A stretch of DNA of 64,000 nucleotides from Dehalococcoidia bacterium (GTDB taxonomy: Bacteria; Chloroflexota; Dehalococcoidia; GIF9; AB-539-J10), in NCBI GenBank assembly GCA_030611085.1, contig JAUWQI010000003.1, forward strand, positions 4,056 through 68,055, given 5' to 3'. The notes beneath the pieces were generated by a model. It worked only from the letters and a program-made list of their open reading frames with translations, searched no databases and had not been told where the DNA came from. The number at the start of each line of letters is the position of its first letter. The first letter of the stretch is position 1. The position numbers were made by a program, and so were the translations under genes. Shown in pieces: positions 4,366-56,254 of the stretch.

Positions 4366-4408
4366 GTGAAGAATCTCTTTGGTGAGGGTGGTTAATGAGA
4401 GGATAGTT

Positions 4409-4588: not shown

Positions 4589-4615
4589 TAAAATCTAGCA
4601 TTTAATGGGGGTGAT

Positions 4616-4885: not shown

Positions 4886-4899
4886 CGAGATGTCTAGCC

Positions 4900-5103
4900 G
4901 GAGTCTTGAGCCCTTCGCCTTCTGTCCTTCTGAGCGTAGCGAAGAATCCCAGAGACCCTTCACTTCGTTCAGGGTGACAAAAGGAGGTTGTCCTTCTGAG
5001 CGTGTGAGCCGAAGCCCTGAACCCTTCGCTCCTTGTCATTCTGAGGGAGCGAAGCGACTGAAGAATCTCGCTCAGGGTAAACTCCGTGAAGGGGAAGAAT
5101 CTC
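4900..5103. repeat. tandem cluster of family A half-palindromes (gtcattctgagVgagcgaag..gaagaatct type)
   Basis: At least three units are readable: tccttctgagcgtagcgaagaatc, tccttctgagcgtgtgagccgaagcc and gtcattctgagggagcgaagcgactgaagaatctcgctcaggg. Confidence 0.8.
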
Positions 5104-5108
5104 ATCCT

Positions 5109-6382: not shown

Positions 6383-6584
6383 CAGGGATGTGTGGAACGT
6401 CCTCCGAAGCTAATCACAGAGAGCAGATTAAATTCTTGCAAAATTTTTACTCCAGGCAGAGTCCCATTTTCCCGGTTTAGTAATATATAGGTAAGACCAA
6501 ACTGTTATGTTGGACTTAAAATTCATCGAATCTAGGATTAGGGGACATGATGTAATCCAGATAGATAGGAGACACACATAAATT

Positions 6585-7061
6585 ATGAAAAGGTGGGTAG
6601 TCATAGGTTCAGTTATCACTCTAGTAACGGTTTTGGTCTGTGGGGGCGTCGCTTGCTGGTGGCTGTCCCCTGGAGACCTTGGCACAGACGACCTAGACAG
6701 ATTGGGCTTAGAGCCGGGCAAGGGAAGGGTTATTGGAGTTGTTACTGATAAAAAGGAATTCTTGCCACCGGGGGCAACACTGCAGACCTACGAAGGGGCA
6801 TCGATTTCGGTTTGCGAGGCGGTGCAAGCGGGGACCTATAAGTTAAGTGAAGAAGAACCCGAACGGATAAACTATGATGTTGGTGAAATGGTCGCCGAAG
6901 TGAAATCAGGGGAAGACGGCTATTGGCAGGTGGACCTGGATCCGGGCAGATATTTTATTCGGGCTTTCTATGGAGAACGTAGTTACACAGGAGACATATT
7001 CATTGAAGTTAAAGAGGGTGAGGTAGAACATCTCAGTTTAGAACTGATACACGGGGTCTAG
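6585..7061 (+). CDS. hypothetical N-terminally membrane-anchored protein
   Basis: 158 aa with an N-terminal TM/signal anchor (VVIGSVITLVTVLVCGGVACWWL) followed by a beta-rich domain. No family recognised. Confidence 0.5.
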   Translation: MKRWVVIGSVITLVTVLVCGGVACWWLSPGDLGTDDLDRLGLEPGKGRVIGVVTDKKEFLPPGATLQTYEGASISVCEAVQAGTYKLSEEEPERINYDVGEMVAEVKSGEDGYWQVDLDPGRYFIRAFYGERSYTGDIFIEVKEGEVEHLSLELIHGV

Positions 7062-7260: not shown

Positions 7261-7356
7261 ACAAGAAGAGCAACAGCTTGCCGTTAATAAACGCTCTCGG
7301 GAACATAATGCTTGACCTTGCTGATATAATAGTAGTAGAAAAAAAGGAGGCGTAAG

Positions 7357-7503
7357 ATGGAAATAGTAATAGCTATTCTGGTGATAGCTGCAATAATCGG
7401 GATAGCCATAGCATCTAGAAAGAGGAGTAAGGGGAAAGGTGCTAGGGGCGAGGACTATGGTGGTGATGATGACGGTGGAGATGGAGACGGAGACGGTGAC
7501 TAG
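7357..7503 (+). CDS. small single-pass membrane protein with Gly/Asp-rich acidic tail (48 aa, not in ORF track)
   Basis: SD AAGGAGG lies 6 nt upstream of the ATG. Product is MEIVIAILVIAAIIGIAIASRKRSKGKGARGEDYGGDDDGGDGDGDGD. Confidence 0.5.
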   Translation: MEIVIAILVIAAIIGIAIASRKRSKGKGARGEDYGGDDDGGDGDGDGD

Positions 7504-11207: not shown

Positions 11208-11591
11208 GGGGGCAAGTAAACCGGGTGACCGCTCTGTATTTAACTTACAGGGAGGAAAGTCCGAGCTCCACCGAGCAGGGTGCTGGGTAACACCCAGGAG
11301 GGGTGACCCTATGGAGAGTGCCACAGAAACATACCGCCTTGCGAGATATTATTTCACAGGGTAAGGGTGAAATGGTGAGGTAAGAGCTCACCAGCAGCCA
11401 GGTGACTGGTTGGCTGGGCAAACCCCACCTGGAGCAAGACCGAATAGAAGGGCGTTTGAAGCGCTCGGCTGAAGCCCTCGGGTTGGTCGCTTGACCCTGA
11501 TGGTAACATTAGGGCTAGATGGATGGTCACCACTTCATTTTTGGAGTACAGATTTGGAGTACAGAACTCGGCTTATAGGTTTACTTCCCCC
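11208..11591 (+). ncRNA. rnpB: RNase P RNA, bacterial type A
   Basis: Universal blocks are present: GGAAAGTCCGAGCTCCAC, ACAGAAACATACCGCC, GGGTAAGGGTGAAATGGTGAGGTAAGAGCTCACCAG and ACAGAACTCGGCTTATAGG. P1 pairs 11208-11222 with 11578-11591. Confidence 0.85.
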
Positions 11592-36205: not shown

Positions 36206-36991
36206 TCAAATTTCAATCCTCCAACCATGAGAATATATGTTGAACCTTTTTGAATCGGCAAATCCTATAAGTGTTATCCTGTATTTATTGGCTTCTTTTA
36301 CAGCTAAGTCTGTGGGTGCAGCGATGCTTATGACTATGGGTATGCCGCAGAAAATTGCTTTCTTTATCGTGGAAGCCGTTTGTCGGCAGGAGGTAACTAG
36401 GAAGCTATCGGATAAATCGATTCCGTCTCTAATTGCCAGACCGATGGCTTTGTCTATGGAGCAATGCCTGCTTATATCCTCGACAAATTTGCCCGAATGG
36501 GCAAACTCAAATTGATTCACTGTAACTCCTTCGAGGTTTTTGCCCTTCGGCAAAATATCTCCACAAATCCCAATAACATGTGTACATCCAGTTTTTCGGA
36601 ACAAGAAACTATTTTTAGCTAAGCATTCTACCGAATAAAAAATCTCTTTGCTGGTTAATTTTTTATTGGACTCGCATGGTTGAGGAGTCTTCAGTAACCC
36701 TTTAACAAATGAAAGCTCAACATTAAATTCATTGTCTGCAATTTTCCTGATCTGGGAGAAGGAAGGATTTATACCCCTTGATGTCAAATTGCCGAGTATC
36801 ATTTCTTCCAGGTCAGTTGAGATACAGTAGAATTTATGGATCTCTCTGTCTATTCTAACAACAACCTCCTCTTCACGGATGACCTCATCCACCTTTTTCT
36901 CAGCACGGGTCTGAAGACCCGTGCCTACGAATATAGGTGTATCATCCTTGGAAACCACAGAGATTTCTATTTCCGAAATTCTTTTTTCCAT
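36206..36991 (-). CDS. fdhD: formate dehydrogenase accessory sulfurtransferase FdhD
   Basis: 261 aa. GCTHVIG, the SCRQTASTIKKAIFCGIPIVISIAAPTDLAV region and LIGFADSKRFNIYS. Confidence 0.85.
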   Translation of the reverse strand: MEKRISEIEISVVSKDDTPIFVGTGLQTRAEKKVDEVIREEEVVVRIDREIHKFYCISTDLEEMILGNLTSRGINPSFSQIRKIADNEFNVELSFVKGLLKTPQPCESNKKLTSKEIFYSVECLAKNSFLFRKTGCTHVIGICGDILPKGKNLEGVTVNQFEFAHSGKFVEDISRHCSIDKAIGLAIRDGIDLSDSFLVTSCRQTASTIKKAIFCGIPIVISIAAPTDLAVKEANKYRITLIGFADSKRFNIYSHGWRIEI

Positions 36992-37335
36992 GATTTATGG
37001 AAGTCCTTTATATCATCTATTATGCACTTGCAGGCATCGAAGGCTGCCCATCTGTGGGACGCTGAAACCGCTACCAGTAAAATGCTTTCTGATACTGGTA
37101 GAAATCCGACTCGATGTATTATTGCAACATCCTCTATATCAAATCTATCAATGGCTCCTTTTTCTATTTCTTTTAGTTTCTGAACGGCGTTCTCATTGTC
37201 CTCGAATTCCAATCCTGAACCTTCGGGGAATTCACGCACAGTGCCCAAATAAGTTAGTATGGCACCTATTCTTGGGCTCTTCATCTTCTTAACTATTTCA
37301 TCGACGGAGAAATCGCCTTTTCTTATCTCAATCAT
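36967..37335 (-). CDS. moaE: molybdopterin synthase catalytic subunit MoaE-like
   Basis: 122 aa. GAILTYLGTVRE, HRVGFLPVSESILLVAVSASHR and FHKSWKKE. Overlaps fdhD by 25 nt. Confidence 0.8.
   Translation of the reverse strand: MIEIRKGDFSVDEIVKKMKSPRIGAILTYLGTVREFPEGSGLEFEDNENAVQKLKEIEKGAIDRFDIEDVAIIHRVGFLPVSESILLVAVSASHRWAAFDACKCIIDDIKDFHKSWKKEFRK
37265..37311. repeat. 47-bp perfect direct repeat, right copy (inside moaE 5' end)
   Basis: cctattcttgggctcttcatcttcttaactatttcatcgacggagaa is identical at 41513-41559. Imperfect similarity extends to 37256-37365. Confidence 0.9.
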
Positions 37336-37487
37336 TTCAGTATATCCCTTTACAATAACATCAACCTCGTGAGATTGCTTCGCCTTCGGCTCACAATGAC
37401 TTAAAAGAACTGCTTGAGCCCTTACCTAAGGGCTAGGACTTATAAGCTTGTTTTAGCCAAAAATCCATATCCTAAAATTGCCTCTTA

Positions 37488-37964
37488 CTATCTACAATCC
37501 TGTAGTATTTCTTCTGAGTGATTCGTTACAAAATTCGTGATGGTCTGTAATTCCTGCTTTGCAGAGGAGCCAAACATCTTCTCTAATCTTTTTGCTTGTA
37601 GAATGTCTTCAATGCGTGGGATAGATTCAGAAGGCGTTTCTGTAATCCACCACTTTATATAATCGAGGATATGGTGTAAATACCAAGCCTTTATGTACTC
37701 CACCCCCTTTTGACGCAAGAATTTTAGCTGGATTTTCCTGGCATATTCTTTATTTCTGCCAGAATCATGCCTCATAAACTGTCCTATAGTAATGTGGGTT
37801 GGTCTGCCTTTACTATAAATTTTTGCATCTGGGTCTCTATCGCAAAAATCTAAGAACTCTTGGCATTTTTGAGGGAAATCGATTATCAGATTAATAAAGA
37901 CAGAGACTTCTTTGGATATTCCCATTTGTTCAGCCCACTTATTGTGGATTTCCCATTTAGGCAT
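37488..37964 (-). CDS. hypothetical His/Asp-rich protein (islet gene 5)
   Basis: Start taken at the ATG behind SD AAGGGGG. Product begins MPKWEIHNKW...RHDSGRN...YLHHILDY. No family recognised. Confidence 0.55.
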   Translation of the reverse strand: MPKWEIHNKWAEQMGISKEVSVFINLIIDFPQKCQEFLDFCDRDPDAKIYSKGRPTHITIGQFMRHDSGRNKEYARKIQLKFLRQKGVEYIKAWYLHHILDYIKWWITETPSESIPRIEDILQAKRLEKMFGSSAKQELQTITNFVTNHSEEILQDCR

Positions 37965-38037
37965 ATCCCACCCCCTTACCCTTCGAGCCAGATATAAGCT
38001 CCATTGCCAAATGCCAAGCATTTGAGCGAGCGAACAC

Positions 38038-38622
38038 TTAAATTTCAATCCTTCTTTCTTTACCTCTACTTAGATATTGACGATATAATTCGTCACCCAC
38101 CCAGCCAATCTCGGCTCCTGCAGCTGTGGATTCAAGCAATATCCACCTACCATTCTCTTCTGGAATCTCCCTTGTATATGCATTTGTTGGTATTTGGGCA
38201 ATATAGTTTGGGCTTACATATGCTTCAACAAATACATGGACTGGAACAAAAACGAGAGCGACCCTAAAACCATTTGCCCGCAGTAAGGTGGCCAGAAGAA
38301 TAGACTTACAATCACAATCTCCAGCACCGACATATATAGTTTCAAGTGCGTCAGCGAAATAGTCTTCATCCCAAGGGTCTGGCATGTAATCGATTTGCTC
38401 AGCAACAAATCTGTATATTTTCTCAATCCTGCATATCTCGTTCATATTGCAGCCTTCCGTCAATTGGGCTGCTATTCTCCTAATTTCAGGAAGTGTGGCA
38501 TCAGACATTATAGTCTTCTTCATTCCTTTCTCTAAGGAAGGTCTTTCCATGGCTTTCTTTACACCATAGCCGACCAAACTAAGCAATAACAAACCTAATA
38601 ACTTCTCATCATCTTTTGGCAT
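38038..38622 (-). CDS. membrane-anchored transglutaminase-like protein (islet gene 4)
   Basis: SD GGAGGG 5 nt upstream and an N-terminal TM helix. GAGDCDCKSILLATLLRANGFRVALVFVPVHVFVEAYV...WILLESTA fits the Cys-His-acid order of transglutaminase-like cores. Confidence 0.6.
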   Translation of the reverse strand: MPKDDEKLLGLLLLSLVGYGVKKAMERPSLEKGMKKTIMSDATLPEIRRIAAQLTEGCNMNEICRIEKIYRFVAEQIDYMPDPWDEDYFADALETIYVGAGDCDCKSILLATLLRANGFRVALVFVPVHVFVEAYVSPNYIAQIPTNAYTREIPEENGRWILLESTAAGAEIGWVGDELYRQYLSRGKERRIEI

Positions 38623-38786
38623 ATTACCCTCCTCTTCTTTATGTTTCAAAGATCGTGCGACAAAGCCAAAGCAACTCTATCCACAATCGTCGCTATCAAT
38701 TTCATATAACATTTTTGCGTTTGTAAAGTGCCGAAGGCATTTGGGCAAGCGAAGCTCATAATGTTCAAAGTTTCTCCCATGTGCCT

Positions 38787-40163
38787 TTATAGCCAAAACT
38801 CCTTTCCACACCTCTCGCAATATTTAGCAGATATCCTATTCGGTTTTCTGCAAAAATTACAATATTTGATATTCTCTGGTATGGGGGCTTCAGGTCCAAA
38901 TATCTTGGTTTCAATTGGAAACTTTGAGCCCTTGATTGCATATTCCAATTGTTTATCATCTGTCTTTGCTACAATGATGCCTCTCACCTGTTTTCCCTTT
39001 GCAAGATTCTCATGAACCCAAGCCATATATTTTTGGATTTGTCCAACCACTTCATAAGACCCGCTGCCTTTCTTCAATTCCACCACCATAAGGTTTTCGT
39101 CTTTGTCTTTGCACAAGATGTCTATAAAACCAACAGAGGTTGGGTATTGCCTTCCCACCACCCCTAAGCCCTCCTCCAATACACCTGGATTTGATACTAT
39201 AGAGTCCTCTATTTCTGATTCTGACACCTCGCTCACCACTTCAGTATCTTCCAAGTCCCCAAGAGCCCACTCATCTTTTACTCGCTCCTTTGCAATTTGA
39301 GAGACCTTGTCGGAAATACCCTCAATCTGAGGAAGCTTCTCTTTATAAGGTTGCATCACATCATATATAAATTTAGGAATTATGAAATCTATGCTGACAT
39401 TGCCATTTGCACTCACGTAAAACACCCAATAGCCAATGCCCAACTTAACTAATTCGTCCCCAAATTGCCAGAAGCTATATTCGTGTTGCTCATATAGAGA
39501 GATTAAATACAAGCCACTGGGACGTGAGATTTTCTTGAATCTGTATTCCTTTAATTCTTGAGCAAACATCACATTGAATAGATATGTCCATTCTTTTGTA
39601 TCAATTTCAAAGTAGGAGATTTCCCCCGTTTCCTCATTTACTCTGATAGGAAAATCCAAAAGCAGTTCGTATTTATCACTATACGACTCATCTCTTGCCC
39701 TGTGTTCTTCAGCCTTATGCAAAGATTCCTGGATTTTTTCTGGGATATAGTTCAATACAAAGGACAGTATTTGCGTATCTAATCCAGAAGAGATTACTTT
39801 AAGCCTTTCCTCTGTGTTTTCAGCTAACATCCTAGAAGTCCTATTCATCAATATTTTATCCAGCGAGTCTGTATCCTCATCATATGTTTCATAGGATAAA
39901 AAATCAGGCATGCTATTTAAAGATTCTATGAATATGTTCATCTTTTCCTTGATTTGTGGGACCAGCAAATTGTGCCTTTTCTGAAGATTCCTCTTGCAAG
40001 TAGTTCCTAACCACTTCTTGAATTCTCTCTCATGCTTATGGTATCCAGTCTTTGACGGCAAGCAATACGAGAAGACCCACAAGATATCCAAAAGCGTGTA
40101 ATCTCTCTTAGCGAGAACAGAACTATCAACGAATTGCTCTATTAAATCTCTATTGTTGTCCAC
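38787..40163 (-). CDS. fusion protein: unknown N-terminal ~330 aa + NucS/DUF91-like PD-(D/E)xK nuclease domain + C-terminal zinc ribbon (islet gene 3)
   Basis: GTG start behind SD GAGGAGG. GFIDILCKDKDENLMVVELKKGSGSYEVVGQIQKYMAWV carries D...ExK and QxxxY. C-terminal CNFC...CERCG. Confidence 0.6.
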   Translation of the reverse strand: MDNNRDLIEQFVDSSVLAKRDYTLLDILWVFSYCLPSKTGYHKHEREFKKWLGTTCKRNLQKRHNLLVPQIKEKMNIFIESLNSMPDFLSYETYDEDTDSLDKILMNRTSRMLAENTEERLKVISSGLDTQILSFVLNYIPEKIQESLHKAEEHRARDESYSDKYELLLDFPIRVNEETGEISYFEIDTKEWTYLFNVMFAQELKEYRFKKISRPSGLYLISLYEQHEYSFWQFGDELVKLGIGYWVFYVSANGNVSIDFIIPKFIYDVMQPYKEKLPQIEGISDKVSQIAKERVKDEWALGDLEDTEVVSEVSESEIEDSIVSNPGVLEEGLGVVGRQYPTSVGFIDILCKDKDENLMVVELKKGSGSYEVVGQIQKYMAWVHENLAKGKQVRGIIVAKTDDKQLEYAIKGSKFPIETKIFGPEAPIPENIKYCNFCRKPNRISAKYCERCGKEFWL

Positions 40164-40209: not shown

Positions 40210-40983
40210 TCATTTCTGCCTTTTCTCATCTAACAGTCTTTTGATGTCTTCCTCTAAGGCGTCTCCTCTGAGTATCCTTGGAACTAATTCCCCGTTTATC
40301 AAATGCAAAGCTGGCTGAACCTTCTGTAGCAAGCCAGCAACTTCTGGTCCTTCTATCATCTTGACGCTGTCTTTCTGCAAAACACCTATTTTTGTCAGAC
40401 CGCCACAATCGGGAGCTATTTCTATAACTTCGTTTATGGTGTAAGCAGCTACAGCCATCGCTTCATTGACGGTGATGTCCTGAATCCAGAGATTTTTTAG
40501 AAGCATCTCGGCAAAAGCTGCACCAGAACCGACAGTGCCATAGTCCTCCACTGGTTCTACAGTTCCGTCTCCGTGAACAATCCCCGAATAGAACTCGGTC
40601 TCGTTTTCTTCTATAGCTTTGGCACCAAAGACTAAAATAGGGGAAAAGTATTCCCTCTCATCTATATCTAATAATTTCGACCTTTCTATGTTATATTCCT
40701 TGTGCAAAGCCAACACCGTCTTCTCCAAGGTGTCCACGCATTCGTCTTCACTCAGGGTAGAACCTTTCTCACGCCTCTTTTCTTTAAGCGTAAACTTTAT
40801 AGCATCAACAGCTTTGCGTATATGAGCAACTGCTCCTGCACCAGCAACTATGAAGCTGTCATCCAACTGATACATCTTGTTTGCGTTGAGCCTCTTGATG
40901 GGAACTCCCCTGCTGAACTCGACCTGGCTGTCAGATGCAATCACGATACCGTCAACACATTTGATGCTTATAACTATTGTCAT
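40210..40983 (-). CDS. proteasome beta-subunit-like Ntn Thr hydrolase with ~60-aa C-terminal extension (islet gene 2)
   Basis: ATGA overlap with the upstream gene and SD AGGAGGG. MTIVISIKCVDGIVIASDSQ places Thr directly after Met. D17, K(33-35), AGAGAVAH and GSGAAFA blocks are present. Confidence 0.65.
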   Translation of the reverse strand: MTIVISIKCVDGIVIASDSQVEFSRGVPIKRLNANKMYQLDDSFIVAGAGAVAHIRKAVDAIKFTLKEKRREKGSTLSEDECVDTLEKTVLALHKEYNIERSKLLDIDEREYFSPILVFGAKAIEENETEFYSGIVHGDGTVEPVEDYGTVGSGAAFAEMLLKNLWIQDITVNEAMAVAAYTINEVIEIAPDCGGLTKIGVLQKDSVKMIEGPEVAGLLQKVQPALHLINGELVPRILRGDALEEDIKRLLDEKRQK

Positions 40984-41330
40984 TTTGGATTTCCCTCCTG
41001 TAACATTCCTATCATCTCCCAAATCACCTTTTCCTTCACCCGCACATAGGTCTCGTCATCAATACCAAGAGCTTGCCTACAGCTATCACGCATAATACAG
41101 TCTTTGGCAAGCCCGCAGCAGTAACCTATGTTTTTATAACAGGTAACGCTCATTGCTTTCTTTACATCGGCCTTCGTCTTCCTCACTTTTTGGTCTATTT
41201 CCTTTAATGATTCTAATTTCGTAACCAGTCTTTGAAGTCTGCGTTGCTCCCTCTCATCCTCTTCTTCAGAAATAACTTCTTTTGCCTCCAGAATAACCTC
41301 GTCGAAATTCATAATGCCCAGCTTTTCCAT
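40980..41330 (-). CDS. hypothetical coiled-coil protein with C-terminal Cys cluster (islet gene 1)
   Basis: 116 aa with SD AAGGAGGG. Acidic coiled coil, then CYKNIGYCCGLAKDCIMRDSC. Confidence 0.55.
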   Translation of the reverse strand: MEKLGIMNFDEVILEAKEVISEEEDEREQRRLQRLVTKLESLKEIDQKVRKTKADVKKAMSVTCYKNIGYCCGLAKDCIMRDSCRQALGIDDETYVRVKEKVIWEMIGMLQEGNPK

Positions 41331-41395
41331 CTAGATCTCCTTACCCTCCTTCGTCTTAAAGTTCCATTCCCTATCTGATATTGAAAGCTCACTGT

Positions 41396-41481: not shown

Positions 41482-41583
41482 TCAAATGCTAGTTCTCTGC
41501 GATAGTATCGCGCCTATTCTTGGGCTCTTCATCTTCTTAACTATTTCATCGACGGAGAAGTCGTTTCTTCTTATCTCTACCAT
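41482..41583 (-). pseudogene. moaE 5' remnant (first 27 codons, then divergent, stop after 33 aa)
   Basis: MVEIRRNDFSVDEIVKKMKSPRIGAIL|SQRTSI* versus intact MoaE MIEIRKGDFSVDEIVKKMKSPRIGAIL|TYLG. Confidence 0.8.
41513..41559. repeat. 47-bp perfect direct repeat, left copy
   Basis: Identical to 37265-37311. Confidence 0.9.
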
Positions 41584-41842
41584 CTTAGTATTTGCTCCTT
41601 CGGAGAAATCCTACCAGATATCAAAAATCAAAGATAAAATTTTGCGAAGCAAAAAGGGGACTAAATAAGGAACATTCATTTTAGTTTTGCCAAAGGCAAA
41701 TAAAATTACAACTCAAAATGTAAAAAGGCTTTACTAAACTGATTTTTAACTTTTGCTCTGTCATTTTGCATCTTGATTTTTGCTTTTTGACTTTCCTTTA
41801 GTATTTTGAATTTCGTGCTTAGAATTTATCCGTATTTGGTGC

Positions 41843-42790
41843 TTATTTCAGTATGCCTCTCACAATAACATCAACTGCTTCTTCCTCATTTAATCCCCTT
41901 GCCATCAATGTTTGCATTTGCTTCTTATCTATACTGCCGATGGCAGCTTCATGAGTAACCTTCGCCTGCTTATCATTCACATATACCATCGGTATTGCCC
42001 TTGCTATCACTCCTTCTCCATTCACGATTTCGAGGCAGTCAACATGCCCTCGGGCGAAGGGGGCGTTGCCATATGTTTCACCCCGGACTACTGCTTTGGC
42101 ATTATCATTTAATACCAAACGACTTTTTGCCAAACCGCGAGCCTCGGCGCCATCCAGATGGATTTTCTCCACTATACTTATGTCGTCTTCCTTTTTGCCA
42201 GAGACTTTTACCATGAGCTCGCTATTGCTTTTTTCCTCGCCAAAAATCTCAAAATCGTAGTCCAGCATGCCCACGCAGCCTTCAATTAAGACGAAGGTGC
42301 TCTGCCAAACGCCTTTCTTGCCCACCCTGATTTTTGCCTTAGGAATCACCTTAACCCCACCGAATTCTCCATGATAATGAGTTTCATGATAACTAAACTT
42401 GGCATTATCCCCGATATTTATGTCGGCGTTCATCTTATGTATTACGGCGACGGCGTTGGGGAAAATACAATGGGCAATAACATTTACCTCGCTGCCAGCT
42501 TGCGCCTCTACTTTCAATGTGATTTCTTGCAATCCCTCCTGAGGCAAAACGCCAAAACACAAATGGACAGGGTGTTTAATTTTTACCCCTTCCTCCACTA
42601 AGAAATAGATATTAACGCCAGTTTCTGTCTCCTCTGTCTCTACTTTTATTCCCGCAGCCTCGTTAGCGCTGAGGACTTTATTTTTATGGATAACAAGATT
42701 GCCTGCATCCCTGATTTTCAAGGCATTCAGGTTACCACCTGCCTTGCCATAGGCTTCAAGCATTGCTTCATATTCTTTAACAACAATCAT
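41843..42790 (-). CDS. SufB/SufD family Fe-S cluster assembly protein
   Basis: 315 aa beta-helix-type sequence ending KVTHEAAIGSIDKKQMQTLMARGLNEEEAVDVIVRGIL. Adjacent to sufC. Confidence 0.8.
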   Translation of the reverse strand: MIVVKEYEAMLEAYGKAGGNLNALKIRDAGNLVIHKNKVLSANEAAGIKVETEETETGVNIYFLVEEGVKIKHPVHLCFGVLPQEGLQEITLKVEAQAGSEVNVIAHCIFPNAVAVIHKMNADINIGDNAKFSYHETHYHGEFGGVKVIPKAKIRVGKKGVWQSTFVLIEGCVGMLDYDFEIFGEEKSNSELMVKVSGKKEDDISIVEKIHLDGAEARGLAKSRLVLNDNAKAVVRGETYGNAPFARGHVDCLEIVNGEGVIARAIPMVYVNDKQAKVTHEAAIGSIDKKQMQTLMARGLNEEEAVDVIVRGILK

Positions 42791-42803
42791 TTCTTAAACT
42801 CTC

Positions 42804-43511
42804 TTATACCTCTAGCGTGCCAATGTGGTTACAAGTTTGACAATTACTCTTAAACCACTGACACATTTCCTCAGGTAGTCCGGTATTGATTACTTTCCCT
42901 GCGCACATTACCGACACCTCATCGGCTACACTCACTGCCTCCTCGCTATGCGTGATTAAGAGCACTGCGGAGCCTTGTTTACTCATTTCGGTTATCCCAT
43001 TCATAATATGGGGCAATGAGACTACATCTATGCCGGAATCGGGCTCATCTAATATAACTACTTTCGGCTTTATAGCCATGACAGAAGCAAGCTCCACCCT
43101 TTTCCTCTCACCTCCACTTAGACTCACATCAATGGCTCGGTTTAGATACTCTGTCGGGGGAAGTCCAACCATCCAGAGGTAATTTTCAATCTCACTTAAA
43201 CTCAAATCTCTATTTAAGTTCAGATATTCCTTTATGCTAAGCCCTTCAAACCTCGCCGGCTCCTGCCAAGCCAGGGTTATCCCCATTTTTGCTCTCTGTG
43301 AAATGGTGCACTGAGTGATATCTTGACCCTCAAATATTATGTTTCCCTCATCAGGATAACTTATCCCCATTATTAAGCTAGCCAGAGTTGTCTTTCCGGT
43401 TCCATTTACCCCCAACAAGCCATGTATCTTCCCTTCCTTTACTTCCAGATTCAACCCATCAATTACAGGCTTGCCATTTAGCGTTAGTTTGAGGTTCCTC
43501 ATTTCCAACAT
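42804..43511 (-). CDS. sufC: Fe-S cluster assembly ATPase SufC
   Basis: Walker A GVNGTGKTT, signature LSGGERKR, Walker B VILDEPDSGIDV, H-loop ITHS. Confidence 0.85.
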   Translation of the reverse strand: MLEMRNLKLTLNGKPVIDGLNLEVKEGKIHGLLGVNGTGKTTLASLIMGISYPDEGNIIFEGQDITQCTISQRAKMGITLAWQEPARFEGLSIKEYLNLNRDLSLSEIENYLWMVGLPPTEYLNRAIDVSLSGGERKRVELASVMAIKPKVVILDEPDSGIDVVSLPHIMNGITEMSKQGSAVLLITHSEEAVSVADEVSVMCAGKVINTGLPEEMCQWFKSNCQTCNHIGTLEV

Positions 43512-43608
43512 TTGTCTCGTCTCTCTTTAAGTTTGCTGCCGGTGCTTTAAAATTTAGTTAACATTCCTGACATAGCTTGCCTTTTACCTGCTGTTGTGTA
43601 AGGGGCGC

Positions 43609-44094
43609 CTAAGCAAAAGTTGCCCCAATCCAATCACCAACATAATATGTCACAACTATAACTACTACTGCAATAATCAAGTGCTCTGCAACTGCTTTCC
43701 AAGGTTTCCCTTTTTGTTTCTTAGCGATACTAAAACTGAGGATACTTAGCAGGGATAAGCCCCAAATTATGCTTACCACAATTGCTGTTGAAAGTTCAAA
43801 TAACAAGACTGGAATAATAAATGTTGATGCAAAAATAAACTTAGAGAAAAAGGTAGAAATTGTTGATTCCCATATTTCTTTTGCAGTATGTTTATTTTCA
43901 GATTCTTCAGAAATATGAATACCCAATGCATCTGAAATTGCATCTGCTATAGCTATTGTTAATATACCGCCAAGAACAGCGAGTTTTGAGTGGGTGCCAG
44001 AATATAAGCCAATCATTAGCCCAAGCGTTGTGATTATTCCAGAGGTTAGACCAAAACTAAATCCTACTTTCAGCGAATGTTTCATAATTAGCAA
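43609..44094 (-). CDS. VIT1/CCC1-related membrane protein (short form)
   Basis: 161 aa. GFSFGLTSGIITTLGLMIGL and AIADAISDALG motifs. Confidence 0.6.
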   Translation of the reverse strand: MLIMKHSLKVGFSFGLTSGIITTLGLMIGLYSGTHSKLAVLGGILTIAIADAISDALGIHISEESENKHTAKEIWESTISTFFSKFIFASTFIIPVLLFELSTAIVVSIIWGLSLLSILSFSIAKKQKGKPWKAVAEHLIIAVVVIVVTYYVGDWIGATFA

Positions 44095-44327
44095 AATCCC
44101 CTACAAGCAGTACAACTCGTGGCAGAGCATGTGCTGCAAGGGGAGCTTCCACCAATTGGGGCAGATACTTCTTCCACGCCTTTGGAGAAGGAAGCAAAAG
44201 AAGAGAATACTCGTTCAGCGTCATTATGGCAATAGGGGCAAAGAGCATTTTGGCTAGGCTGGCTTAAGGGGCGAAGCAATTCAAACTTAAGATTACACTG
44301 AGGACAAAAATATTCATAGATAGGCAT
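44088..44327 (-). CDS. FmdB-family zinc ribbon protein
   Basis: MPIYEYFCPQCNLKFE...CPYCH; start taken at this Met. Confidence 0.7.
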   Translation of the reverse strand: MPIYEYFCPQCNLKFELLRPLSQPSQNALCPYCHNDAERVFSSFASFSKGVEEVSAPIGGSSPCSTCSATSCTACRGFC

Positions 44328-44565
44328 TTTTACCTCCTTTCCCCTCCTCAAAGGCTTTTAAGAATGCTTCGGGGACTTGAGGAACATGGGTATCTGCCCA
44401 TCTTTTAAGGCAAGTAAAGGAGCAGAAATTATAGTGCTCAACCGCTCCTAGTCCTTTCCATTGAGAAACCGTGAGCCATCTGCTGAGTACCTCACAAGGT
44501 CGCTCTCCCGTGGCATACTCCAACCTTTTACCACAAGAATGGCAAATAAAAGTTGGCTGTCGCAT
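44314..44565 (-). CDS. hypothetical zinc-finger protein
   Basis: 83 aa. CHSCGK...CSFTC pairs. Confidence 0.5.
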   Translation of the reverse strand: MRQPTFICHSCGKRLEYATGERPCEVLSRWLTVSQWKGLGAVEHYNFCSFTCLKRWADTHVPQVPEAFLKAFEEGKGGKNAYL

Positions 44566-44573
44566 TTTAGTCC

Positions 44574-44792
44574 CTAAACAGCAATCACTTCCTTAACCTC
44601 AGGCACCTGTTCCTTAAGCACCTGCTTAATTCCGTGCTGCAAAGTCATAGCTGCCATAGGACAGCCACCACAAGCACCTGTCAGCCTCACTGTGACTACG
44701 CCTTCATTCACATCCACTAGCTGAATATCACCGCCGTCAGCCAGCAAAGCAGGTCTTATTTGAGCCAGGGCTACTTCTACCTTCTCTCGCAT
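44574..44792 (-). CDS. NifU C-terminal-domain (Nfu-type) Fe-S scaffold/carrier
   Basis: 72 aa. IRPALLADGGDIQLVDV..GVVTVRLTGACGGCPMA. Confidence 0.85.
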   Translation of the reverse strand: MREKVEVALAQIRPALLADGGDIQLVDVNEGVVTVRLTGACGGCPMAAMTLQHGIKQVLKEQVPEVKEVIAV

Positions 44793-44808
44793 TGTTCTAC
44801 CTCCTATA

Positions 44809-44914
44809 AGATCCTAAATTTGAATTTTTGTCATTCATTGGTGCTTTGATATTGTTTAGCATTTCGTATTTAGAGCTCAGGATTTATAGTCAATTGGGCA
44901 ACTACATTTTTAAA
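44809..44914. repeat. MITE-like family B partial copy 4 with family C arm
   Basis: Near-identical to the reverse complement of 4409-4500. Confidence 0.75.
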
Positions 44915-44937
44915 CAGCCTTAACTAGCCATCAGTCT

Positions 44938-45378
44938 TCAGCTAACTGCTGACCGCTGAATGCTCCACTTTTGTCTTTGCCGTTCAAGCAAATCCTGTAG
45001 AGTCGTGGATTCTAGTATGCTATTTATCGCCGTTTTCACCTCCACCCAGACATCATAGATTGCACAGAGAGCTGCTTGTGGATATGTCTCAGGGTCATCG
45101 ACACATTCTGTTGGAGCCATAGACCCCTCCGTAACCTGGATAATTTCGCTGAGCCTTATTTGGGAAGGTGGTTTAGCCAGAGTAAACCCGCCATGTGTTC
45201 CACGACTACTCTTTACCATCCCTGCCACTTTGAGTGAAATAAGTAAATGCTCCAAATATCGCCCAGAAATATGTTGCCTTCTAGCGATGTCTTTTACCAG
45301 GATAGGTCCATTCCCGTAGTGAAGGGCCAAATCAAGCATTGCCATCGTTCCATAGCGTCCTTTGGTAGAGATTCTCAT
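44938..45378 (-). CDS. Rrf2 family transcriptional regulator
   Basis: MRISTKGRYGTMAMLDLA...ISGRYLEHLL..L..AGMVKSSRGTHGGF. Confidence 0.85.
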   Translation of the reverse strand: MRISTKGRYGTMAMLDLALHYGNGPILVKDIARRQHISGRYLEHLLISLKVAGMVKSSRGTHGGFTLAKPPSQIRLSEIIQVTEGSMAPTECVDDPETYPQAALCAIYDVWVEVKTAINSILESTTLQDLLERQRQKWSIQRSAVS

Positions 45379-45461
45379 AGTTCCTATTCCTTTATCATAA
45401 AGTTCATCATAATGATGATATAGTATGGGCTAAGAATTATCAACTGAGCTAGGCTTGTGGT

Positions 45462-45794
45462 TCAGGGCCTACATGTTTCTTCGCTCTTTACTGTAGCTGG
45501 AGGGGAGTAATGTGTATCCATAGTGATAGCTTTTCTGGGGCAAGCTTCAACACAAGTGGCACAATAGATGCAGGCGAAAGGATTATATTTAAGAGTTTTG
45601 GCCTCTTTATCCACGACTATAGCATTTGAAGGGCAAAGTTGGGCACAAGCACTGCAGAGATTGCATTTCTCCATATCGAAATGGAGTTTTCCTCTATATC
45701 CCGAGAAAGGCTCCCTTATATCTTTGAAAGGGTAACGCCTTGTGACAGGTCTAGAGAATAAATTTTTCCAAATTGTGGGCAACATCCAGGGCAT
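45462..45794 (-). CDS. echF: Ech hydrogenase 2x[4Fe-4S] ferredoxin subunit (NuoI-like)
   Basis: 110 aa. CNLCSACAQLCP and CIYCATCVEACP. Confidence 0.8.
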   Translation of the reverse strand: MPWMLPTIWKNLFSRPVTRRYPFKDIREPFSGYRGKLHFDMEKCNLCSACAQLCPSNAIVVDKEAKTLKYNPFACIYCATCVEACPRKAITMDTHYSPPATVKSEETCRP

Positions 45795-45800
45795 ATCTAA

Positions 45801-46883
45801 TCACCTCTCAGTGCAAGCAATGCAAGGGTCGATGGAAAGGGTTATCACTGGTACATCGGCTAACTCGCAACCGGGGAGCATAGTTAGAAGAGGAGGTATG
45901 TTAGCGAATGTGGGAGTTCTTACCCGCAACCTGTCCAAATTGCGGGTACCATTTCCTTTAATATAGTAAACCACCTCTCCTCTCGGCTGTTCTGCTCTGT
46001 GAATCATCTCTCCTTCAGGAGGGTTACCCCTCACCGTAACGGATATATCCCCCTCAGGCATAAGCGATAAAGCCTTTAAGATAAGCTCTCTGGACTGGTA
46101 TATCTCTCTGAGCCTGACTATGGTTCGAGCGTAACAATCTCCGTCGCTTTCCACTATGGGCTCAAAACCAGTTTCCTTATAGGCAGCATAGCCAGTTTGC
46201 CTTATATCTAAAGGAACACCACTTCCCCTCAGAATAGGACCAACAGCTCCCAAGAGATTGGCTTGCTCCTTGGATAGCATCCCTTTGCCTACGGTGCGAC
46301 GCTTTATAGTAGGGTCATTATACACGGTGGGGGAAACAGTATTATCCATAAGCTCTTTAAAATCGCTAAGCTTGTGCTCTACCTCTTTAGCCATCTCCTT
46401 ATCTATATCTCTCCTTATGCCACCGATTATGGAAGTAGATTGGATTATCCTATGGCCGGCAGTCATCTCAGAGATATCCAAAATAATCTCCCTGGCTCTC
46501 CAGCATTGCATGAAGAGGCTTTCAAAGCCCATGGCATCAGCAAAAAGTCCTAGCCAAAGGAGATGTGAATGTATTCGGGAAAGCTCACTCCAACAAAGAC
46601 GAATGAACCTAGCCCTTGGCGGAACTTCAACCTGCATTAGTTTCTCTACTGCCTCGCAGTAGCATAAGGCGTGAGTGAAACTACAAATGCCACAGATTCT
46701 TTCAACAAGAAAAACATTGTTGCGGAAAGGATTAAGTTCGCCAGCTTTCTCAATCCCCCTATAAATATAGCCTATGATGGGAGTGACACCAACCACTGTT
46801 TCATCCTCCAATTCAAGCTTCAGGTGGATGGGTTCGGGTAACACCGGATGCTGGGGACCAAATGGTATGACCGTTCTGGCTAT
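45801..46883 (-). CDS. echE: [NiFe] hydrogenase group 4 large subunit (NuoD-like)
   Basis: RICGICSFTH N-terminal and DPCIACTER C-terminal Ni-binding motifs. The conserved IPFGPQHP lies upstream of the track GTG, so the start was extended to ATA 46883-46881 (see finding). Confidence 0.8.
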   Translation of the reverse strand: MARTVIPFGPQHPVLPEPIHLKLELEDETVVGVTPIIGYIYRGIEKAGELNPFRNNVFLVERICGICSFTHALCYCEAVEKLMQVEVPPRARFIRLCWSELSRIHSHLLWLGLFADAMGFESLFMQCWRAREIILDISEMTAGHRIIQSTSIIGGIRRDIDKEMAKEVEHKLSDFKELMDNTVSPTVYNDPTIKRRTVGKGMLSKEQANLLGAVGPILRGSGVPLDIRQTGYAAYKETGFEPIVESDGDCYARTIVRLREIYQSRELILKALSLMPEGDISVTVRGNPPEGEMIHRAEQPRGEVVYYIKGNGTRNLDRLRVRTPTFANIPPLLTMLPGCELADVPVITLSIDPCIACTER

Positions 46884-53239: not shown

Positions 53240-56200
53240 TCATTTAGCTCTTATATCACACAGGAAAGCTTTATACTCCGGAATTGTAGTGTTGGCATCG
53301 CCTATATTAGCAGTGAGCAGATTGGCACTATCTCCTTTGGATAGTCCCATATAACCCCAGTGCCACGGCATGCCAATCTGGTGCACCTTAGTCCCGTTAA
53401 TTGAAAAGGGAGTGAACCTCTTGGTAACCACAGCCACAGCTTCTACCTTACCCCGCGCCGATTCCACAATAACTCGCCCGCCATTTTGAATGCCTTTCTC
53501 TTCTGCCAGCTCATGACTCAGCTCGACAAACATTTCAGGCATAAGCTCCACCAACCAGGGCAAATTCCTCGTCATTTGCCCTGCCTGCCAGTGCTCTGAC
53601 AAGCGATAAGTGGTGCAAACGATGGGATATTTACTCGGGTCGCCTTTGCTGTCCATGTCGGATTTCCAGATAGTAATGGCAGGGTCATTCTGAGTACCAG
53701 ATAAAAGGTTCTTCACCGGGCTCTCCCAGGGCTCGTAATGCTCCGGCATAGGTCCATCTTTAAGAGCCTCGCCGGGAGCAAAAAGATGCCCACGCCCCTC
53801 GGAGGTCATAATGAAAGGAAGCTTGGTGCCACTTTGGGACATGGGAGCCCAACCCCCATCTGGAATATCACCCTCCCATTTCTTGAGCAAGGGATGCCAG
53901 CTAACGACTGCTTTTTTGGGGTTAAAAGGATTGCCATCGAGGTCCACTGATGCTCTGTTGTACAGAATACGGCGATTTATTGGCCAGCACCATGACCAAT
54001 TGGGATAAAGCCCAATATTGGCTTGAGCCGGTGTTTGCGTTGAGTCTCGCCGCGCTGCCATATTTCCTTTCTCGGTATAGCTGGCGCAATAAAGCCAATT
54101 GCCTGAGGTGGTTGTGCCGTCATCCTTGAGATTGGTAAAACTTGGGAGAAGCTTACCAGTTTTAAGGTCATACCCATTAATCTCCTTAGCTACTTTATGC
54201 GCATCGGGTTCATCCCCATAATCCCAGGTCAAATTCAAAATGGGGTCGGGATACTTACCACCCTCCCCAGCATATAGCTCTTTCAGCTTCATGACAAGCT
54301 GAGTGACTATCCACAGGTCACTCTCTGCCATGCCCGGACCATCACAGCATTTGTACCTCCACTGCATCCATCTTCCGCTGTTGGTAAGACTGCCATCCTT
54401 CTCCATTGAAGCTTTAACAGGAAGAAGAAAAACCTCGGTCTTTATTTGGGATGGGTCTGCCCCGGGTCTTTTCCAGAAGGCAGCCGTTTCCGTTTCCCAC
54501 AGGTCTGTTACTAGCAGCCAATCAAGCTTGTCAAGACCAACCCTTTCCATATTCGAATTGGGCCCAGAAACAGCGGTATTGTGCCCCGGTGATATAAGTC
54601 CCTTTATTATGCCTTTATGTGTTGCTTCGGTAATAGCAATGTGTGAATGGTCGCCACTATACTTAGGCAGATAATCATAGGCGAAGTCGTTTGAAGCAGT
54701 AGCAGCATCGCCATACCATGCCTTGAGCAAACTAACGATATATTTTTTATAATGCTGCCACCAGTTAGCGCTTAAGGGGTCTTTGGTTGTGGGAGTGTAA
54801 TGTTTGAGATAGGTCTTAAAGTCCACATCCTCAGGCTGAGGTGTCTTGAGATAACCAGGGAGAATATGGTACAGGATACAGTGGTCTGTCGAGCCCTGAA
54901 CATTGGATTGCCCTCTAGCAGCATTGATTCCTCCACCAGCCATACCTATATTGCCGAGCAGGAATTGCAGGATGGCATAGCTCCGAATATTTTGAGTGGC
55001 GTAGGTATGCTGGGTGGTGCCCATGGCATAAATGATTGTGGCAGACTTATCGGGCCTGCCCGTGGCAGCATAAGTTTTGCACACCTCGGAATAGACATCT
55101 TTAGGTGTTCCCGTAATACTACATACGGTATCAACATCATAGCGGGAGAACTGTTTCTTGAGGAGTTGAAAAATGCAATTCGGGTCTTTGAGGGAAAGGT
55201 CTCTCTTGGGAATGCCCTTGTCATCTAGCTGGTACACCCATGTTGACCTATCATAGCTTCTCTTCTTGTCATCATATCCAGAGAAGAGACCATCCAGGTC
55301 TGCGGGACCTTTAAATTTGGGGTCTACAAGCAAAGTGGCATTGGTGTATTCCTTTATATAGGTCATATTATAATTCTCAGGATGCCTTTCAATATCCTCG
55401 ATTACATATCTAATCATGCCCCCGATGAAGGCAATATCCGTCCCCGACCTCATCTTGGCATAAATGTTCGCTTTAGAGGATGTCCTGGTGAAGCGAGGGT
55501 CAACACTGATAAGCTTGGCGCCCTGCTCCATTGCTTTAGTCACCCACTTGAAGGAAAGTGGGTGGTTCTCGGCGGCATTGCTACCGATAATCATGATGCA
55601 ATTGCTGTTCTTGATGTCAATCCAGTGATTAGTCATTGCGCCCCGTCCGAATGATGCTCCTAGGGCAGCTACAGTGGAGGAATGGCACAGCCTGGCACAA
55701 TGCTCCAGATAAGTTATTCCTAGAGTGCGAGCGAACTTTGTGAATAGATAAGCTGCCTCATTATTGACCATGGCGCTACCATCCCATGCGATAGCCTCAG
55801 TATGATTGACGATGCGACCCTTCTTATCTGTATGCTCCCAGTTTTCATCCCGTGTTTTTTTAATATTTCTGGCGATACGCTCTATAGTCCAATCCCACGA
55901 CACTTCTTCCCAGTCATAACTCCCGGGACGCCGATATAAGACCCTGTCGAGACGACGAGAATTATTAGTTACCTGGATTAGGGCAGCGCCTTTGCTACAT
56001 AATGCCCCTTGATTGATGGGGTGGTCTGGGTCGCCTTCGATATTTATGGCTTTACCATTTTCAGAAGCCACGATTGCCCCACAGCCCACGCCACAGTAAC
56101 AACAAATGGTAGTTTTCTCGCCGATTTTCTTTCTGAGCGGGATATCTATGGGAGCAGCTTCAAGGAGTGAATCCCAATTCAGTATTCCCAAAAAGGCAGC

Positions 56201-56254
56201 TCCCGCTGCCCCTGCCCCACTTAGTTTGAGGAAATCTCTCCGAGTTAAGTCCAT
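53240..56254 (-). CDS. fdnG: Tat-exported molybdopterin formate dehydrogenase catalytic subunit, Cys-type
   Basis: Twin-arginine signal TRRDFLKLSGAGAAGAA and an N-terminal CCYCGVGC cluster. The active-site stretch HCARLCHSSTVAALGASFGRGAMTNHW aligns with E. coli FdnG ARVUHGPTV, with Cys190 (55685-55687) at the Sec position. Confidence 0.85.
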   Translation of the reverse strand: MDLTRRDFLKLSGAGAAGAAFLGILNWDSLLEAAPIDIPLRKKIGEKTTICCYCGVGCGAIVASENGKAINIEGDPDHPINQGALCSKGAALIQVTNNSRRLDRVLYRRPGSYDWEEVSWDWTIERIARNIKKTRDENWEHTDKKGRIVNHTEAIAWDGSAMVNNEAAYLFTKFARTLGITYLEHCARLCHSSTVAALGASFGRGAMTNHWIDIKNSNCIMIIGSNAAENHPLSFKWVTKAMEQGAKLISVDPRFTRTSSKANIYAKMRSGTDIAFIGGMIRYVIEDIERHPENYNMTYIKEYTNATLLVDPKFKGPADLDGLFSGYDDKKRSYDRSTWVYQLDDKGIPKRDLSLKDPNCIFQLLKKQFSRYDVDTVCSITGTPKDVYSEVCKTYAATGRPDKSATIIYAMGTTQHTYATQNIRSYAILQFLLGNIGMAGGGINAARGQSNVQGSTDHCILYHILPGYLKTPQPEDVDFKTYLKHYTPTTKDPLSANWWQHYKKYIVSLLKAWYGDAATASNDFAYDYLPKYSGDHSHIAITEATHKGIIKGLISPGHNTAVSGPNSNMERVGLDKLDWLLVTDLWETETAAFWKRPGADPSQIKTEVFLLPVKASMEKDGSLTNSGRWMQWRYKCCDGPGMAESDLWIVTQLVMKLKELYAGEGGKYPDPILNLTWDYGDEPDAHKVAKEINGYDLKTGKLLPSFTNLKDDGTTTSGNWLYCASYTEKGNMAARRDSTQTPAQANIGLYPNWSWCWPINRRILYNRASVDLDGNPFNPKKAVVSWHPLLKKWEGDIPDGGWAPMSQSGTKLPFIMTSEGRGHLFAPGEALKDGPMPEHYEPWESPVKNLLSGTQNDPAITIWKSDMDSKGDPSKYPIVCTTYRLSEHWQAGQMTRNLPWLVELMPEMFVELSHELAEEKGIQNGGRVIVESARGKVEAVAVVTKRFTPFSINGTKVHQIGMPWHWGYMGLSKGDSANLLTANIGDANTTIPEYKAFLCDIRAK

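Follow-up and report, generated by a model that had tools for sequence, protein, structure and literature searches.

A stand-alone proteasome-like protease as probable mobile-element cargo in a Dehalococcoidia bacterium

A stretch of 64,000 nucleotides from contig JAUWQI010000003.1 of a Dehalococcoidia bacterium (hereafter the window) contains a gene for a proteasome-like N-terminal nucleophile (Ntn) protease of 257 amino acids. The gene lies in a 4.2-kb island of five genes which is inserted in the 5' end of moaE. All five genes are co-oriented, in the order of a small protein with a cluster of five cysteines (the Cys5 protein), the protease, a NucS-type nuclease, a transglutaminase-like protein and a last protein to which no function is assigned. 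The protease is probably a stand-alone member of the proteasome-like proteins which is carried as cargo by mobile elements and serves in them a conflict or maintenance module. The features of the island are the following:

37255..37343, no strand given, direct repeat copy 1, at the 5' end of moaE (the intact gene occupies 36967..37335, minus strand)
37488..38048, minus strand, protein of up to 186 amino acids, fifth island gene, open reading frame (ORF) only
38038..38649, minus strand, transglutaminase-like protein (cysteine-protease fold) of 203 amino acids, fourth island gene, Pfam Transglut_core 8.8e-09
38787..40163, minus strand, NucS-type nuclease of 458 amino acids, third island gene, with a C-terminal PD-(D/E)xK domain and a zinc ribbon
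40210..40983, minus strand, proteasome-like Ntn (Thr1) protease gene, 257 amino acids, N-terminus MTIVISIKC
40980..41330, minus strand, Cys5 small protein of 116 amino acids, helical hairpin at the N-terminus and Cys5 cluster at the C-terminus
40993..40998, minus strand, Shine-Dalgarno box GGAGGG, 9 nucleotides upstream of the protease ATG and within the 3' end of the gene for the 116-residue protein
41503..41591, no strand given, direct repeat copy 2, an orphan moaE 5' end, upstream of the Cys5 gene

The two direct repeats, of 89 nucleotides and 89% identity, stand 4248 nucleotides apart and both represent the first 27 codons of moaE. The copy that belongs to the intact gene translates to MIEIRKGDFSVDEIVKKMKSPRIGAIL, and the orphan copy translates to MVEIRRNDFSVDEIVKKMKSPRIGAIL and then diverges. 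In addition, the DNA similarity of the window to three other contigs, which hold a copy 88% identical, is limited to positions 40244-41351, that is, to the Cys5 gene and the protease, the flanks being unrelated. The repeat search found no terminal inverted repeats around the cassette of the window, GC content does not mark the island, and promoter and terminator scans were uninformative. As regards the remaining island genes, the nuclease matches Pfam NucS_C (1.3e-18) together with a zinc ribbon, and the PADLOC candidate family PDC-S02 (1.4e-24) through its nuclease domain only. The transglutaminase-like protein begins with a hydrophobic segment and its gene has no copy in any related locus; for the fifth protein, Pfam gave only Death_3 (E 0.051, 14 bits against a cutoff of 27) and PADLOC gave no match.

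The protease ORF is real and selectively maintained. Read from the sequence, its ATG overlaps the TGA of the upstream gene as ATGA, and the position of the Shine-Dalgarno box inside the 3' end of that gene suggests translational coupling of the two. An alternative, longer reading with a TTG start would extend to 41022. Nevertheless, the ATG was taken as the real start because of the GGAGGG box at 9 nucleotides, the ATGA overlap and the start common to the relatives, nearly all of which have Met, Val or Leu followed by Thr at one aligned position, in nearly all cases Met-Thr. The overlap and the MTIVISIKC start, with threonine at position 2 and no propeptide, were thus confirmed as the original prediction had described them. 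Compared with the 88%-identical copy from another metagenome (locus L005; related loci are designated here by such numbers), the ratio of nonsynonymous to synonymous substitution rates is 0.11 for the protease and 0.16 for the Cys5 gene, which indicates that both are maintained by purifying selection. Threonine is among the residues that methionine aminopeptidase allows after the initiator methionine, and this enzyme would remove Met1 and leave Thr1 as the nucleophile.

Several searches place the protein in the proteasome fold. Residues 4-194 match Pfam PF00227 at E 1.6e-15, their score of 57.7 bits lying above the cutoff of 22.4. A single-sequence search of the PDB gave as best solved relatives the 20S beta subunit of M. 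jannaschii (3h4p_a, E 9.9e-07) and a 20S alpha subunit (E 1.3e-06) at near-equal scores, and a family profile brought these values to 1.2e-15 for the archaeal beta and 8.1e-13 for the alpha subunit. The AlphaFold2 model, built with 24 relatives as input, reached a predicted local distance difference test score (pLDDT) of 90 and a predicted template modelling score (pTM) of 0.86. The 50 best Foldseek matches of this model in the PDB are essentially all 20S beta subunits, with a template modelling (TM) score of 0.87 to 3h4p_a at probability 1.0; one chain among them, 8w2f_E, may be an alpha subunit. The model has the alpha-beta-beta-alpha Ntn fold with its helices H1-H4, of which H1 spans residues 52-73 and H2 residues 79-105, as well as a C-terminal addition of two helices (213-239 and 244-256). 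The latter had been estimated at about 60 residues, a figure that has to be reduced to about 30-45, since the alignment to the beta subunit already reaches residues 222-226. The protease is therefore a proteasome-fold Ntn hydrolase, and its nearest relatives of solved structure are the archaeal 20S beta and alpha subunits.

The catalytic residues were assigned from the HMMER alignment to 3h4p_a. In numbering that counts the initiator Met, Thr2 corresponds to Thr1, Asp18 to Asp17, Gly50 to Gly47, the run G152-S153-G154 to Ser129, and Lys36, across an insertion of two residues, to Lys33. The Asp17, the shifted Lys33 and the glycine blocks, first recognised by eye, are hence borne out. Two sets of relatives, 24 close and 78 broader ones, show little or no variation at the Thr, Asp, Lys, Gly and Ser positions. 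The claim of an intact catalytic set stands for Thr1, Asp17, Lys33, Gly47 and Ser129 and fails at Asp166, the position of which is occupied by Ala190; that of Ser169 is occupied by Cys193. Both are second-shell catalytic residues of the 20S beta subunit. The family consensus of this loop is I-D-P-x-C-G-G, and the window protein, like its relatives of at least 87% identity, reads I-A-P-D-C-G-G, with an Asp two residues after Ala190. The catalytic set is for this reason not fully canonical.

The original prediction had compared the gene with HslV, Anbu, BPH and actinobacterial 20S, a list that is outdated, since Fuchs, Alva and Lupas described in 2021 another 22 stand-alone proteasome-like families besides HslV, Anbu, BPH and connectase (PMC8665760). 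As homologues with such features had been catalogued then, the protease of the window does not form a new class. The gene is a further member of this catalogued stand-alone kind, and what is new is its context, namely the mobile elements and the regulator-like and nuclease genes with which the family is found.

The host is a bacterium, as follows from the bacterial class A RNase P RNA present in the window (11213-11591, plus strand, 306 bits). Moreover, window proteins fall in clusters of at least 90% identity with proteins named Chloroflexi or Dehalococcoidia bacterium. The protease family is mainly archaeal; the relatives of the island genes are likewise mostly archaeal in spite of their bacterial host. 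The family is also rare: it accounts for 28 clusters among 5.8 billion non-redundant proteins, and the relatives among 1.84 billion proteins comprise 82 representatives below an E of 1e-30 and 1035 below 1e-10. In a set of 185,579 species represented by a single genome each, 34 family loci were found, about 12 of them 29-51% identical to the protease along most of its length. Closer relatives (29-51%) belong to Bathyarchaeia, Nitrososphaera, Nitrosotalea, Methanobacteriota, Desulfurococcales, Thermoproteales, Thermoplasmata and Dehalococcoidia, and distant ones (23-26%) to mycobacteria (annotated as 'proteasome protein'), Opitutaceae, Verrucomicrobiia, Acidobacteriota and others. The protease gene was seen split by a frameshift into two ORFs in contigs of archaeal metagenome-assembled genomes (L013 5992-6803, L017 2084-2754, L023 816-1611 and L085 257-1022), these copies being either decaying genes or assembly errors.

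The genes around the relatives point to mobile DNA. The commonest neighbour, found within four genes of the protease in 12 of 48 distinct loci, is a transposase of about 375 amino acids that combines SWIM, InsA-zinc-ribbon and DDE_Tnp_IS240 domains. In six loci, the protease lies between terminal inverted repeats, which in five of them enclose a transposase as well:

L015 (Nitrososphaera RefSeq contig), 2322-2381 and 7340-7399, perfect repeat of 60 nucleotides, protease and transposase
L073, 99-162 and 5915-5978, perfect repeat of 64 nucleotides, protease and transposase
L094, 4808-4832 and 8530-8554, perfect repeat of 25 nucleotides, protease and transposase
L080, 4878-4899 and 8041-8062, repeat of 22 nucleotides with 95% identity, protease and transposase
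L009, 4567-4617 and 7747-7797, repeat of 51 nucleotides with 78% identity, protease and transposase

In the sixth, L008, an inverted repeat of 21 nucleotides (95%) encloses just an AbrB-like gene and the protease. The transposase is of the IS240 type or IS1-like in L015, L073 and L094, and the repeats of L015 and L073 have the motif CTGTTAACTGTCGGC in common. This looks like a family of transposons that carry the protease as a passenger in Nitrososphaerota and in other metagenomic lineages, which are untyped. In four loci (L008, L009, L067 and L069), an AbrB/MazE-like small gene lies directly upstream of the protease; in L008, L009 and L069 it codes for 59-66 amino acids and overlaps the protease start by 4 nucleotides; the small gene of L009 matches Pfam MazE_antitoxin with 20 bits. 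Mobility can also be seen in L001 and L002, identical cassettes between different flanks.

As regards the Cys5 protein, the pattern C-x6-CC-x5-C-x5-C noted previously was found again, and the 28 homologues compared all keep its five cysteines (C64, C71, C72, C78 and C84). The model of methanogenesis marker protein 9 (TIGR03277) matches residues 48-107 only, with 31.6 bits against a cutoff of 96.2; judged by this match, the Cys5 protein shares its Cys-rich domain with the marker protein and is not an orthologue of it. Among 43 homologues, some are labelled by the Joint Genome Institute (JGI) as 'predicted metal-binding transcription factor (methanogenesis marker protein 9)', and the protein is predicted to bind metal; a literature search for the function of marker protein 9 found nothing. 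Its AlphaFold2 model is helical (pLDDT 70), with a confident N-terminal hairpin and values below 50 in the Cys region. Foldseek returned no PDB match better than E 3 for this model, and PADLOC a single 13-bit match at chance level.

The pairing of this protein with the protease is confined to one clade (L005-L007, L058 and L061), in which the proteases are about 87-100% identical to that of the window and the partners down to 70%. In L055, the Cys5 protein is 70% identical and the first 100 residues of the protease are still about 90% identical. Elsewhere, the Cys5 homologues are found in other company. In L049, a 69%-identical homologue is followed by proteins of 404 and 570 amino acids. Homologues of 45-48% precede a 240-residue zinc-ribbon protein without a Pfam nuclease match in L051 (5001-6075) and a 121-residue NucS_C protein in L053 (4714-6559), where restriction-modification, HicB and MNT/HEPN genes adjoin the cassette; ParE genes also occur in the islands of these homologues. 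By eye, the 240-residue protein has a PD-(D/E)xK-like motif. The cassettes of L051 and L053 both separate carA from carB in the pyrimidine operon, a site that looks like an integration hotspot. In L056, a 60% homologue comes directly after a 465-residue nuclease-like protein, with no protease present; the identity of this protein to the 458-residue nuclease of the window is 48% along its whole length (E 1e-156). Since Cys5 homologues adjoin nucleases elsewhere, the recurrent pair is the Cys5 protein plus a nuclease, between which the protease stands in the window. Other protease clades have the AbrB/MazE-like small gene upstream, or nothing. The small upstream proteins thus behave like interchangeable leader or regulator genes and not like a dedicated structural subunit.

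Related loci show further combinations. The island of L061 consists of the Cys5 protein, the protease, an 850-residue protein and, at its distal end, a fragment 84% identical to the 186-residue protein, and its site is another one, with a permease gene on one side and NAD kinase on the other. The order of protease and NucS-like nuclease recurs in L060, where the nuclease is 72% identical to that of the window. The downstream protein of L005 and L061 (840-850 amino acids) ends in a NOV_C domain and is similar to TmtA of PADLOC (Tiamat) over the N-terminal part of the latter, with E 1e-51 for L005 and a best value of 5.8e-54 in the tally. The locus L016 (Methanobacteriota, 2199-6780) is a tight operon of protein A (385 amino acids), a 217-residue protein, protein B (667 amino acids) and, in last place, the protease. 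The 404- and 570-residue proteins that follow the Cys5 homologue in L049 (5001-8399) are homologues of its A and B proteins (E 3e-27 and 4e-23), and A and B of L016 cluster with the proteins of 423/429 and 537 amino acids of L088 and L089 (L088 2421-7589). The match between the 570- and 537-residue proteins is weak (E 0.002-0.003), and the 404-residue protein has no direct match to the 423-residue one. In L088 and L089, the A/B pair comes with a classical AAA ATPase (PF00004 6e-51, PADLOC IetA 5e-39) and is convergent to the protease. Proteins A and B and the 217-residue protein gave no match in Pfam or PADLOC. In raw counts, the top neighbouring Pfam families (147 neighbours, 39 loci) are transposases, N6_N4 DNA methylases, PIN, IS1, HEPN_AbiV and AAA. 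By guilt by association, the Cys5 protein, the protease, the nucleases and A/B with or without AAA are interchangeable neighbours, in a pattern like that of conflict systems.

Other arrangements were seen once or in few loci. In a 93-kb metagenome contig (L004, 6799-10786), a distant protease of 36% identity ends a co-oriented run of genes for proteins of 100 and 162 amino acids, a Prok-JAB protein, a ThiF/E1-like protein and a protein of 168 amino acids, which resembles a ubiquitin-like conjugation operon. As this ThiF/JAB operon was seen in no other family locus, it was not used to derive a mechanism. In two Dehalococcoidia loci (L012 6716-7545 and L014 655-1484), the genes that come after the protease code for a DUF5678 protein, with an overlap, and for an aspartyl protease of the retropepsin-like kind, and a 554-residue protein upstream of the protease in L012 is DUF262/GmrSD-like by eye. 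Around the island of the window, iron-sulphur and redox housekeeping genes were recognised by eye (41843-46844 and 53240-56254, minus strand), including SufD- and SufC-like proteins, a CCC1/VIT-like membrane protein, an FmdB-type zinc ribbon, a NifU-like protein, an Rrf2-type regulator, a 4Fe-4S ferredoxin and a [NiFe] hydrogenase large subunit. The source names of the clusters support SufD and a formate dehydrogenase major subunit near the island, and FdhD and MoaE follow downstream of it by eye.

The contexts lead to a testable idea, namely that these proteases take part in mobile-element conflict or maintenance rather than in general proteostasis; it derives from the repeat-flanked 4.2-kb island, the transposons with perfect terminal repeats of 60-64 nucleotides, the coupled small regulator-like genes and the recurring nucleases. 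The protease is probably an ATP-independent oligomeric threonine peptidase, whose activity would depend on oligomerisation as in proteasome subunits. Its job would be tied to the mobile element and not to housekeeping, its regulated proteolysis being part of a conflict or maintenance module. In such a module, it may cleave or turn over the co-translated small metal- or DNA-binding regulator, or another protein of the module, and the turnover of the regulator would switch the neighbouring nuclease or effector, or the expression of the element itself. This switch mechanism is, at best, a tentative proposal by analogy with the dedicated proteases of other mobile elements, whose targets are repressors or antitoxins. 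It is also only possible that the island of Cys5 regulator, protease and NucS-type nuclease in Dehalococcoidia and the IS240/SWIM transposons with an AbrB/MazE-like gene in Nitrososphaerota and untyped lineages represent one recurrent kind of mobile cargo, in which the proteases provide the proteolytic switch, or the effector, for defence or addiction modules of a class not yet described. A literature search found no paper linking proteasome homologues to defence or toxin-antitoxin (TA) systems.

A number of points weigh against the assignment to mobile conflict modules. The island of the window carries no integrase or transposase, and the protease matches none of the families in the PADLOC v2 scan. 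The neighbourhood tally consists of raw counts without a background control, many family loci are without a small upstream gene, and some of the neighbours are housekeeping genes. The Ala at the Asp166 position could mean that activity is reduced or altered. Furthermore, no member of the family has been characterised experimentally, and the 2021 survey reported no informative gene context (PMC8665760).

Among the other explanations, the one that survives best, unlikely as it is, is that of an accessory housekeeping or stress peptidase, ATP-independent and self-compartmentalising, which would clear unfolded or damaged proteins, its mobile location reflecting horizontal spread only. A similar role has been proposed for uncapped 20S, Anbu and BPH, and the authors of the survey lean to such a reading for their new homologues (PMC8665760). 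The beta-subunit fold with its catalytic residues, the lack of an ATPase partner in the 64-kb window and the ordinary metabolic or ribosomal genes that flank some loci agree with it. Nevertheless, the family is very rare and patchy, the protease is found repeatedly within repeat-bounded transposons and small islands, and it is tightly coupled to small regulator-like genes, a pattern typical of selfish or conflict cargo.

Quite improbable is a type II TA-like pair, in which the protease would be the toxin and the small upstream protein the antitoxin and autorepressor, the pair stabilising the island or transposon. For this speak the small upstream gene with its 4-nucleotide overlap and the MazE_antitoxin-like domain in loci such as L009, the movement of the Cys5 protein and the protease as a unit, and the PIN, HicB, ParE and HEPN modules among the neighbours. 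However, the small upstream gene is missing in many family members, and the Cys5 family pairs also with nucleases, which are more conventional toxins. Moreover, a proteasome-fold subunit of 250 amino acids, probably active only when assembled, would be an unusual toxin.

The view with which the analysis of this locus had begun, of an unrecognised orphan class with the Cys-rich neighbour as an obligate structural partner (a gate, chaperone or cap), now has little probability. The ATGA overlap with the Shine-Dalgarno box inside the Cys5 gene, the 88% DNA identity of a pair of which both genes are under purifying selection, and the persistence of the pair with a Cys5 protein diverged to 70% identity are in its favour. 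Nevertheless, homologues with the same features were catalogued in 2021 (PMC8665760), the Cys5 protein is absent from all other protease clades, the 69% homologue heads a different cassette and more distant ones adjoin nucleases; the Cys5 protein is not an obligate partner of the family as a whole. Least probable of all, with hardly any weight, is a non-degradative role as a sequence-specific transpeptidase or ligase, of which connectase shows proteasome homologues to be capable, or as a catalytically weakened scaffold, since the Ala at the Asp166 position (IAPDCGG against the family IDPxCGG) and the Cys at Ser169 that would suggest it stand against a match to PF00227 only, with no DUF2121/connectase match in Pfam, the presence of H1 and H2, which connectase lacks, the conservation of Thr1, Asp17, Lys33, Gly47 and Ser129 under purifying selection, and an Asp two residues downstream that might compensate.

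If the proposal of a mobile conflict or maintenance module is true, it would give the orphan proteasome homologues catalogued in 2021 their first functional context and would add a new type of protease to the repertoire of defence and addiction, in compact systems of two or three genes that lend themselves to biochemistry. The gene itself adds a member to the catalogue and a bacterial host to a mainly archaeal family.

Of the known stand-alone homologues, those of the WPH, ACC and PHI neighbourhood fit best, the protease having been matched to their published descriptions rather than to representative sequences. WPH is widespread in archaea and bacteria, resembles alpha and beta subunits alike and has a C-terminal coiled coil, ACC is archaeal with a coiled coil, and PHI has a helical insertion after H2 (PMC8665760). 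All the homologues new in 2021 are without a propeptide, and neither an AAA+ partner nor an informative gene context was found for them (PMC8665760). The window protease resembles them in the Thr1/Asp17/Lys33/Gly47 core, in having no propeptide, no AAA+ neighbour and no fixed gene context, in its about equal similarity to alpha and beta subunits, and in its C-terminal helical extension (residues 213-256). Both have a patchy distribution as well, over Euryarchaeota, Crenarchaeota and further archaea and over a scatter of bacteria, among them Actinobacteria and the Planctomycetes-Verrucomicrobia-Chlamydiae (PVC) group, the distribution of the family resembling that of WPH. The difference lies in the context, in which the authors of 2021 saw nothing informative and which here is that of island and transposon cargo with small regulator-like genes. 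Neither the cluster look-ups nor a search with a profile of 78 sequences led to the named representatives, WP_040339656.1 (WPH), WP_161937350.1 (ACC) and WP_012956871.1 (PHI) (PMC8665760). Nor do the mycobacterial 'proteasome protein' relatives settle the cluster assignment, as their score with the family profile (64 bits) is about that of the canonical archaeal beta subunit (61 bits).

That the protease stands apart from canonical 20S, HslV, Anbu and BPH, as had been claimed, is supported by the model scores, the best PDB matches and the gene neighbourhood. For canonical 20S beta, the archaeal model TIGR03634 gave 55.5 bits against a cutoff of 224 and the bacterial TIGR03690 gave 29.2 against 191.9; for archaeal 20S alpha, the NCBIfam model gave 32 against 287 bits. 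The archaeal PsmB is the best match in sequence and structure, with the same fold and the positions of Thr1, Asp17, Lys33, Gly47 and Ser129 kept. However, the window protease is about 20% identical to it, has no propeptide, no alpha partner nearby and a bacterial host, adds about 20 internal residues (a longer H2/pore-loop region and a hairpin) and the two C-terminal helices, and has Ala for Asp166 and Cys for Ser169. With HslV, it shares the Thr bared directly after Met and the lack of an alpha ring, but its H5 and C-terminal elements are absent from group I homologues (PMC8665760). The HslV models match residues 1-69 only, at 26-27 bits against cutoffs of 137-158, and there is no HslU in the 64-kb window; within it, neither another AAA+ gene nor a second proteasome-like ORF was found, in agreement with the original prediction.

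The Anbu operon consists of transglutaminase, ATP-grasp and Alpha-E proteins (PMC5666114). Like Anbu, the window protease stands alone, has a long C-terminal helix and is accompanied by no ATPase, and the second gene downstream of it codes for a transglutaminase-like protein; this gene, however, is not conserved in any related locus, and Pfam finds no ATP-grasp or Alpha-E protein among the island genes. Furthermore, no Anbu, BPH or HslV chain is among the best 60 PDB sequence matches or the best 50 fold matches, the 20S subunits being closer. Connectase lacks H1 and H2 and has a helical insertion between S3 and S4 (PMC8665760); in the window protease, both helices are present and Pfam finds PF00227 and no DUF2121. 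The protease is not a phage-type homologue (PPH/AAH) either, as the phage proteasome-like proteins that Foldseek found among viral models match more poorly (TM at most 0.72) than the archaeal beta subunit. The only relative in a viral collection is that of an IMG/VR contig (L138 5001-5600, 25% identity), and the 116-residue protein has no relative in IMG/VR.

Dedicated proteases and TA pairs are known from mobile elements, ImmR/ImmA and the MazE-type antitoxins being examples. The likeness to these examples is one of functional analogy only, and the protease fold is entirely different, that of the Ntn hydrolases and the proteasome here as against that of a metalloprotease there. What the island and the transposons have in common with regulator-plus-protease and type II TA modules is their layout, that of a gene for a small, putatively DNA- or metal-binding protein directly upstream of an enzyme and translationally coupled to it, on mobile DNA and beside nucleases and other conflict genes.

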